DNA from: Escherichia coli
GTDB lineage: Bacteria > Pseudomonadota > Gammaproteobacteria > Enterobacterales > Enterobacteriaceae
Direction: 5' to 3' (one strand)
DNA length: 64,000 nt
Assembly (NCBI RefSeq): GCF_965641715.1
Contig: NZ_OZ282453.1
Numbering within the stretch: position 1 is the stretch's first letter; every line of letters starts with the position of its first letter. Shown here in pieces: positions 35,101 through 35,973 of this stretch. Both the position numbers and the translations under genes were made by a program. The notes beneath the pieces were generated by a model that saw only the letters and a program-made list of their open reading frames with translations, had not been told where the DNA came from and did no database searches.

Positions 35101-35253
35101 TTAGTTAATCAGCTTATCAATCTCGGCAAGGGGTAAATTTGCCATCTCTGCAACGTCTTCCCGAGACATTCCTTTATTCAGAAGACGCAGGACGAATTCT
35201 TGCCTTTCCTCCTGTCTTCCCCTCTCTTCAAACCACTGCGCCAGCGTCATCAT
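35101..35253 (-). CDS. Putative internal RpnS-type small ORF in the rpnC reading frame (MMTLAQWFEERGRQEERQEFVLRLLNKGMSREDVAEMANLPLAEIDKLIN)
   Basis: in-frame ATGATG at 35253/35250 preceded 4-5 nt upstream by GGGAGGGGAG (reverse complement of 35257..35266). Confidence 0.45.
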   Translation of the reverse strand: MMTLAQWFEERGRQEERQEFVLRLLNKGMSREDVAEMANLPLAEIDKLIN

Positions 35254-35973
35254 AGACTCCCCTCCCGTTTCCCTGTCTCTCAGCACACCATAAAACAAAT
35301 CCGCTTGTTCAGTATGACCGCGTTGCAGCATATAGTTTTGCATGGCAACTAACTGACTTCCGCTAGTGTACCCTTCGTCAATCAGCGTGACCAGTTGCTC
35401 CAGCAATAACATTAAGTCGCGCTGGCGAATATGTTTTTGCAGTAGTTCGAGAATCGCAATCCGCCGATGTTGCATGATTTCGTCATCCGGTGTGATGGTG
35501 ATATCCACCAGCGGGAAAGGACTGTTATAGACGCGTCGCGCCAGCTCCGGCGAGTAAAACATATCAAACCAGCACATTGAGAGCGGATAAGGTGTGGCCT
35601 CGCCCTGATAAAACAGTATCGGCACCACCAGCGGCAGCTTATCGTGGTCAGCCTCCAGATGCCGGTGCATGGCGGCAATAGAATAACGCATCATGCGAAA
35701 AGCCATTTTCTTATCTGGCTTGCTTTGATGTTCAATCACTACATGCAGATAACCGGGATTGCCCTGCATTTGCACGGAATAGAGCACGTCCGTGCTGTGT
35801 CCTTTCAGGCTCTCTTCAATGAAACTCCCCGACTCTAAATGAAGCGTATTGAGGTCACAAAGTTCGCGTAATTCCACTGGCAAATGTATCTCCAGAAAGT
35901 CGCGAGCCGTCTCCGCATGCATTAAAAATTGTTTAAATACCGCGTCATGCGGTGTGGTACTCGGTGCATCCAT
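35101..35973 (-). CDS. rpnC: Recombination-promoting nuclease RpnC (YadD; YhgA-like PD-(D/E)XK family)
   Basis: 290 aa; MDAPSTTPHDAVFKQFLMHAETARDFLEIHLP; family and synteny between panC and panD. Confidence 0.85.
   Translation of the reverse strand: MDAPSTTPHDAVFKQFLMHAETARDFLEIHLPVELRELCDLNTLHLESGSFIEESLKGHSTDVLYSVQMQGNPGYLHVVIEHQSKPDKKMAFRMMRYSIAAMHRHLEADHDKLPLVVPILFYQGEATPYPLSMCWFDMFYSPELARRVYNSPFPLVDITITPDDEIMQHRRIAILELLQKHIRQRDLMLLLEQLVTLIDEGYTSGSQLVAMQNYMLQRGHTEQADLFYGVLRDRETGGESMMTLAQWFEERGRQEERQEFVLRLLNKGMSREDVAEMANLPLAEIDKLIN

Follow-up and report, generated by a model that had tools for sequence, protein, structure and literature searches.

An in-frame internal start in Escherichia coli rpnC that very probably produces the nested antitoxin RpnC-S

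The stretch of DNA analysed here (the window) comprises 64,000 nucleotides of an Escherichia coli genome (RefSeq assembly GCF_965641715.1, contig NZ_OZ282453.1). It contains, flanked by panC and panD, a minus-strand gene of 290 codons that we identify from its sequence and neighbourhood as rpnC (Table 1). A number of observations are in favour of this identification. First, over 1.55 kb the locus shares 99.6% identity with the RefSeq-annotated rpnC locus of E. coli O145 RM9872. Second, an identical 290-aa protein is listed in public databases under the name "recombination-promoting nuclease RpnC"; the gene combines near-identity to named RpnC proteins with the panC-panD position, as required of an rpnC orthologue. 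Third, residues 7-207 match the Transposase_31 domain of Pfam (PF04754, E = 2.7e-87), and the NCBIfam model of the Rpn subfamily, TIGR01784, gives 268.8 bits for a cut-off of 52.1. This N-terminal Transposase_31/PD-(D/E)XK domain is the one that defines the Rpn/YhgA-like nucleases. No family of PADLOC 2.0 (2023 library, which may predate Rpn) matches RpnC at E <= 0.01, and RpnC was not assigned to any curated anti-phage defence model of PADLOC-DB 2.0.

Table 1. Features of the rpnC locus, with their positions in the window.
Feature	Coordinates	Strand	Basis or remarks
panC	33876..34727	plus	flanks rpnC
Palindromic hairpin, 12-bp stem	34732..34762		between convergent panC and rpnC-Ss
rpnC-Ss, stand-alone second tail gene, 69 aa	34823..35032	minus	own ATG, moderate SD AAGGGA
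rpnC (formerly yadD), full-length RpnC-L, 290 aa	35101..35973	minus	ORF; Pfam, NCBIfam and RefSeq match
Nested gene rpnC-S, 50 codons and stop, predicted antitoxin	35101..35253	minus	frame, tail homology
Hypervariable helix-1 segment RGRQEERQEFVLRLLN, RpnC residues 251-266	35176..35223	minus	4-aa repeats vary between strains
Internal start codons ATG-ATG of rpnC	35248..35253	minus	codons 241 (35253..35251) and 242 (35250..35248), in frame with rpnC
Internal Shine-Dalgarno sequence GGGAGGGGAG	35257..35266	minus	codons 236-239 (T-G-G-E) of rpnC
Candidate internal sigma-70 promoter (TGGTCA, 17 nt, TACACT)	35365..35393	minus	relaxed scan only
panD	36247..36627	plus	flanks rpnC

Towards its 3' end, rpnC contains an internal Shine-Dalgarno (SD) sequence separated by a TCT spacer from two consecutive ATG codons. 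A first-pass annotation of the window had drawn attention to this motif, placing a strong SD, TCT and ATGATG in frame inside rpnC about 50 codons before its stop; it had considered an SD of such strength unusual within a coding region, and had predicted a product of about 50 aa identical to the C-terminus of RpnC. These claims stand: the motif was recovered at the same coordinates, its SD outranks those of all other internal in-frame ATGs scored, and the predicted translation has 50 aa (49 from ATG 242). The scoring was done by pairing the 16S anti-SD with the 15 nt upstream of each in-frame internal ATG in the 42 long ORFs of the window. The internal SD of rpnC pairs at -10.8 kcal/mol and ranks first of 469 internal ATGs, the next best reaching -7.8 kcal/mol, and an equally good pairing is reached by only 0.03% of all 15-nt coding windows. 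Only one of the gene-start SDs in the window is stronger, and rpnC's own start has an SD of only -3.5 kcal/mol. The internal SD is more than what is expected by chance. Folding of the 100 nt around it revealed no special structure (z = -0.01), and hence no evidence for structural regulation at this place.

An SD-like run of this kind could be a by-product of the encoded peptide, Thr-Gly-Gly-Glu followed by Met-Met, in which case the window allele would have no start site here. The peptide T-G-G-E is purine-rich whichever codons are used, with a mean of -6.8 kcal/mol across synonymous recodings, and what makes the actual sequence strong is mainly codon 237, a Gly codon of a rare type (GGA or GGG). 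These two types together account for about 20% of the Gly codons in the window, sufficient for a strong SD to arise. When recodings are weighted by codon usage, about 3% are as strong as the real SD. A synonymous version with GGC GGC GAA in place of GGA GGG GAG at codons 237-239 is predicted to pair at -5.8 kcal/mol. Since T-G-G-E is intrinsically SD-like, the synonymous-level evidence from rpnC alone is modest. On the other side of the balance stand the first rank among the 469 internal candidates and, above all, the way in which the motif is kept across alleles and homologues.

The 79 nt around the internal site were found in 5,424 of the 5,426 complete E. coli genomes, with at least 95% identity in all but three. 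The GGGAGG core and the ATGATG are invariant in the window and in 15 related E. coli loci that were sampled, and the sole SD variant among these alleles, GGGAGGGAAG, has the same score (-10.8 kcal/mol). What follows the start is variable: RpnC-S lengths of 50, 56, 58, 60, 66, 70, 74 or 78 aa were observed in the sampled alleles. The variation consists of 4-aa repeats whose number differs between strains and which begin about 11 residues after the initiating Met, i.e., between 8 and 20 residues from it; from RpnC-S residue 11, the variable segment spans 16, 20, 24, 32, 36, 40 or 44 aa. The window allele has the shortest tail in the sample (50 aa, with a 16-aa variable segment). A constant SD core across alleles with hypervariable tails argues against a by-product of the peptide. 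The eight distinct rpnC alleles used to analyse third positions show a lower frequency of polymorphism near the site (3/25) than elsewhere (62/225), a difference that is not significant (Fisher p = 0.15), and diversity in these alleles is also low throughout the 3' third of the nuclease domain.

More distant homologues provide an independent view of the site. A tblastn search of plasmids returned 4,671 records with Rpn homologues, and many of the alignments stop at residue 246, where the tail begins. We took nine plasmid homologues with 43-55% identity, from Salmonella, Klebsiella, Yersinia pestis pMT, E. coli IncI and Providencia, and ranked in each of them all in-frame internal ATG, GTG and TTG codons by the strength of the upstream SD, ignoring position. 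In all nine, an ATG or GTG at codon 244-245 opens the reading M/V-T/N-[I/L]-A, and GGAG, GAGG or AGGAGG precedes it at 5-8 nt. This start ranks first or tied first in six homologues and second in the other three. Of the two ATGs of rpnC, it is the second (codon 242) that corresponds in the alignment to the M-T-[I/L]-A of other Rpn homologues, which have a single start. The gene therefore has what characterises the RpnL-RpnS module, namely an in-frame start with a ribosome-binding site near the beginning of the tail. The SDs of the homologues are encoded by H-G-D, H-E-D or H-Q-E-V, whereas that of rpnC is encoded by T-G-G-E. Homologous SDs made from different amino acids suggest selection on the ribosome-binding site, not on the peptide. 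Among the sequence comparisons, this recurrence of SD and start in diverged homologues is the strongest independent evidence for an internal start. The same SD rebuilt at the same place from other residues is hard to reconcile with a by-product of T-G-G-E and Met-Met, as are the Ribo-seq and tagging experiments in K-12, which show initiation and product (PMC10400941; bioRxiv 10.1101/520783), and we regard that explanation as extremely improbable.

One could also imagine that the internal SD is no start site and has its main role in the synthesis of full-length RpnC, as an elongation pause or a signal for co-translational folding. It has been proposed, and disputed, that ribosomes pause at SD-like sequences within ORFs. 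The location would suit such a role, because the motif lies exactly where the nuclease domain gives way to the tail, the very place where so many plasmid alignments end. However, a pausing signal would not require every homologue to conserve, 5-10 nt downstream, an in-frame ATG or GTG, and the Ribo-seq peaks reported for these sites are specific to initiation (bioRxiv 10.1101/520783). Moreover, stand-alone tail genes exist on chromosomes and IncI plasmids, which implies that the tail works as a free protein. We give next to no credence to a role that would be mainly in pausing or folding.

Initiation of translation at the motif is the reading that we favour, and the start coincides with the published start of RpnC-S; it is already known, and we present it as a correct rediscovery, not as a new finding. 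Meydan et al. 2019 (bioRxiv 10.1101/520783) observed Ribo-RET peaks at the in-frame internal starts of all five rpn genes, rpnA to rpnE, and noted that the start in yadD is preserved and that synonymous-site conservation is locally enhanced. Zhong et al. (PNAS 2023, PMC10400941) described Onc112 and retapamulin signals in K-12 rpnC and detected SPA-tagged RpnC-S on immunoblots in MG1655. They showed that RpnS proteins are intragenic antitoxins of the RpnL nucleases: the toxicity of RpnA, RpnB and RpnP2 rises once their internal start is removed, SOS induction is prevented by RpnS, and purified RpnA-S blocks cleavage by RpnA-L in vitro. The knock-outs of ribosome-binding site or start codon in the main text of that study concern rpnA, rpnB, rpnP2 and a C. 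difficile rpn, and rpnC is not among them. Its RpnC experiments used the K-12 allele, with a 60-aa tail; RpnC-S supplied in trans prevented RpnC from inducing SOS only if both carried equally many 4-aa repeats, the repeat segment in helix 1 being the specificity determinant. Phage defence was shown for the plasmid-encoded RpnP2 only (PMC10400941). Our literature search found no work on RpnC later than Zhong et al. 2023. As for transcription, dRNA-seq evidence cited by these authors indicates internal transcription start sites in all rpn genes (PMC10400941). A strict sigma-70 consensus scan gave no promoter inside rpnC on the coding strand, and the candidate retrieved by the relaxed scan is weak and lies about 105 nt upstream of the internal start.

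The predicted RpnC-S (MMTLAQWFEERGRQEERQEFVLRLLNKGMSREDVAEMANLPLAEIDKLIN) is identical to the C-terminus of RpnC-L and has no gene annotation in RefSeq. A profile of 15 tail sequences, RpnC-S included, matches the 49-residue chain of PDB 7TH0 end to end (E = 1.3e-10). This entry is titled "Recombination-promoting nuclease RpnA" and is the crystal structure of RpnA-S. A single-sequence search of the PDB with RpnC-S did not find it. PPR and designed-repeat proteins rank above 7TH0 in the profile search and were disregarded as homologues, because their scores add up many repeat matches that are individually below threshold. An AlphaFold2 model of the 50-aa RpnC-S has three predicted helices (residues 4-26, 31-37 and 42-49; mean pLDDT 80) and agrees, as far as a model can, with the published three-helix bundle with a long first helix (PMC10400941). 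The profile match and the model thus point to an RpnS-homologous tail with this fold. The first-pass annotation had likened the arrangement to that of the RpnL/RpnS toxin-antitoxin pairs, a parallel which our results support, since the start is homologous to published RpnS starts and the tail to RpnA-S.

Other matches of the tail leave room for a different role, in which RpnC-S would be made and act mainly as a helix-turn-helix (HTH) DNA-binding regulator or as a specificity subunit of the nuclease, and not as an antitoxin. A Foldseek search of the PDB with the 50-aa model, a domain too short for this method to be informative, returned nothing significant (best E = 0.45) and not 7TH0; its low-significance matches are generic HTH-like domains, e.g., resolvase, KorB and TrpR. 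The Pfam matches to the tail are weak, both for HTH_7 and for DUF4351 (E = 0.04), and relatedness of RpnS to HTH motifs by HHpred was noted by Zhong et al. (PMC10400941). Kingston et al. (PMC5350276) proposed that the tail sets DNA preference, and K-12 RpnC was only weakly toxic in their hands: its overexpression lowered CFU by 59% and induced dinD-lacZ. These points have to be weighed against the direct experiments of Zhong et al., i.e., the repeat-matched block of RpnC SOS induction by RpnC-S in trans and the inhibition of RpnA-L by purified RpnA-S (PMC10400941), and we find a main role other than antitoxin very improbable. HTH DNA binding may, judging from the modelled fold, be an additional function of RpnC-S.

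Downstream of rpnC lies a second, stand-alone copy of the tail. Zhong et al. described such a copy of rpnC-S downstream of rpnC in some strains and named it rpnCSs (PMC10400941, Fig. 2I). In the window, rpnC-Ss lacks the GGGAGGGGAG-ATGATG motif, and its ATG lies 10 codons farther upstream than this lost start, with an SD of -5.3 kcal/mol. TIGR01784 (NCBIfam) matches the C-terminal part of its product (2.8e-08), and in PADLOC the 69-aa ORF weakly matches the C-terminal end of RmrA (E = 5e-4). Of the 5,426 E. coli genomes, 1,551 (about 29%) carry the rpnC-Ss region at a coverage of at least 80%. Its annotation in RefSeq is not uniform: some records have a hypothetical protein, others a pseudogene or an "RpnC/YadD family protein". 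The scan for terminator-like sites returned none from the stop of rpnC to the start of rpnC-Ss, which suggests that they are co-transcribed, and the hairpin beyond rpnC-Ss is likely a terminator for both this gene and panC. Two other relations between loci were considered. The gap between rpnC and panC in O157:H7 was rejected as a decayed Ss copy; it carries an ERIC/IRU-like repeat. The K-12 allele more probably reflects a simple deletion of the Ss region, which the alignment fits better, although its tail shares some residues with Ss; a nuclease domain fused to the Ss tail is the less likely origin.

The repeat length of helix 1 differs between S and Ss in all 10 distinct pairs sampled (16 vs 24 aa in the window), a small and phylogenetically non-independent sample in which the lack of equal pairs is not statistically significant, equality by chance being rare anyway. 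Under the published repeat-matching rule, unequal lengths suggest that Ss is non-cognate to the resident nuclease. It is conceivable, if rather unlikely, that rpnC-Ss is no redundant antitoxin and represents an archived tail cassette, a decoy, or an antitoxin against incoming Rpn nucleases. As a cassette, its tail would be swapped into rpnC by recombination, with a change in specificity. As a decoy, it would be the bait for a phage factor that targets RpnS. The function of this non-matching copy is the only thread of the present analysis that might yield something new.

We consider it very probable that the motif is an internal translation initiation site of rpnC that makes the antitoxin RpnC-S, hence a gene within a gene. 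The process would involve 1) loading of ribosomes on the strong internal SD, for the most part probably on a short mRNA that starts at an rpnC-internal promoter; 2) initiation at ATG 241 or ATG 242, giving RpnC-S as a three-helix protein of 50 or 49 aa; 3) binding of RpnC-S, via its long first helix, to the identical tail of RpnC-L, with cognate specificity presumably set by the length of helix 1 and hence by the number of 4-aa repeats; 4) inactivity of the toxic PD-(D/E)XK DNA endonuclease as long as RpnC-S is bound; and 5) action of the RpnC-L/RpnC-S pair as an intragenic toxin-antitoxin module, a type of system for which defence against phage has been shown. For the 50-aa window allele we infer translation, binding, antitoxin activity and any role in phage defence. 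An antitoxin encoded in frame inside its own toxin gene is identical to a part of the toxin, so that both must co-evolve, and the hypervariable repeats point to an arms race with phage. This biology was published in 2019 and 2023. The present case has value as a calibration, because a functional internal start and the right system were recognised from raw sequence alone.

The closest known system is RpnC-L/RpnC-S of K-12 MG1655, which is the same gene, at the same panC-panD locus and with the same architecture of N-terminal domain and tail. The alignment indicates that the context of the site (SD, spacer and both ATGs) is the same in K-12 and in the window: within the 62 nt around SD-ATGATG there is a single difference, located 24 nt before the SD. 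The tail, in contrast, has 60 aa in K-12 and 50 aa in the window, owing to two more 4-aa repeats (a clean gap of 24 nt, or 8 aa) and to a different C-terminal end, and K-12 lacks the downstream rpnC-Ss copy. From the published repeat-matching rule, the S proteins of K-12 and of the window should not neutralise each other's nucleases. RpnA-L/RpnA-S is a paralogue at another locus; it likewise has an internal SD and a start at the equivalent position (M244, the published start of RpnA-S; PMC10400941) and a three-helix tail, and its antitoxin activity was shown both in vivo and in vitro. The composite organisation of the locus, i.e., an internal start within the rpn gene and a separate second tail gene behind it, is also that of rpnE with ypaA (RpnE-Ss) and of rpn genes on IncI plasmids, where small downstream ORFs encode the second copy of the tail. 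The RpnE-Ss protein has been observed in K-12, whereas RpnC-Ss is known here only as a predicted gene. According to the published phylogeny, the downstream copies of C and E arose independently (PMC10400941).

Beyond the Rpn family, ArcB-C and Cas11d (within cas10d) are likewise made from 3'-proximal in-frame internal starts that release a free C-terminal domain. Their products cooperate with, or complement, the long form, whereas RpnS neutralises it. RpnC-L/RpnC-S also resembles classical type II toxin-antitoxin systems, where a small helical protein binds and inhibits a toxic enzyme and for which an anti-phage role has also been proposed. The difference lies in the genetic organisation: type II antitoxins are encoded by a separate gene of unrelated sequence, whereas rpnC-S is nested in frame within the gene of the toxin and its product is identical to a part of it.

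Downstream of rpnC lies rpnC-Ss, a second, stand-alone gene for the RpnC tail (PMC10400941), which is carried by ~29% of complete E. coli genomes. Its RefSeq label varies: the closest genome has it as a pseudogene, and other genomes as 'hypothetical protein' or as 'RpnC/YadD family protein'. When searched against PADLOC, a library of curated defence-protein models, its product weakly matched (E = 5e-4) the C-terminal end of the model of RmrA, a candidate defence protein; full-length RpnC gave zero matches in PADLOC. The 68-nt spacer between the two genes (window 35033..35100, minus strand) holds two copies of the direct repeat CCAGATAATT, with starts 25 nt apart, which may be the leftover of a duplication junction.

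Stand-alone tail genes downstream of rpn genes
Feature	Locus	Position	Strand	Length	Start
rpnC-Ss	window	34823..35032	-	69 aa	own ATG, moderate SD
ORF after IncI-plasmid rpn	L014	1417..1623			
ORF after IncI-plasmid rpn	L015	1450..1656			
ORF after IncI-plasmid rpn	L017	1477..1659			
ORF after IncI-plasmid rpn	L018	1367..1648			

We compared the product of rpnC-Ss with RpnC-S, the small protein encoded within the rpnC 3' end, by pairing that end with the downstream ORF in the window and in nine other loci (L006, L007, L010, L020-L025). The repeat-bearing helix differed in length between the two proteins in all 10 distinct pairs (S/Ss 16/24 in the window, with 36/22, 32/26, 16/40 and 44/20 among the others), a result that is not statistically significant. 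This mismatch suggests, short of statistical significance, that the resident nuclease is not the cognate partner of RpnC-Ss. The nuclease itself is unevenly variable: in a set of eight distinct alleles from E. coli, codons 1-120 of rpnC (window 35613..35973, minus strand) show 2-4 times the nucleotide diversity of codons 121-240, with pi at 0.05-0.09 from codon 16 on in the former and at 0.00-0.04 in the latter. This difference is a hint that the nuclease domain has a mosaic or recombinant past.

In E. coli BH212 (L005, NZ_CP029239.1, 1..922), an IS2 insertion removed the nuclease part of rpnC. The remaining 3' part retains the SD-ATGATG and an intact RpnC-S ORF of 60 aa, possibly an orphan antitoxin. 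In O157:H7, rpnC and panC are separated by 299 bp (L004 925..1222). This gap was considered as a decayed Ss copy, a reading that we rejected; it contains a repeat that resembles the ERIC/IRU consensus.

Stand-alone tails also occur on plasmids. After each of the IncI-plasmid rpn genes in L014, L015, L017 and L018 comes a small ORF that is annotated as 'hypothetical protein' and encodes a stand-alone RpnS-like protein (MTIAERLIQKG...); the GF[KD]E repeat count varies among them.
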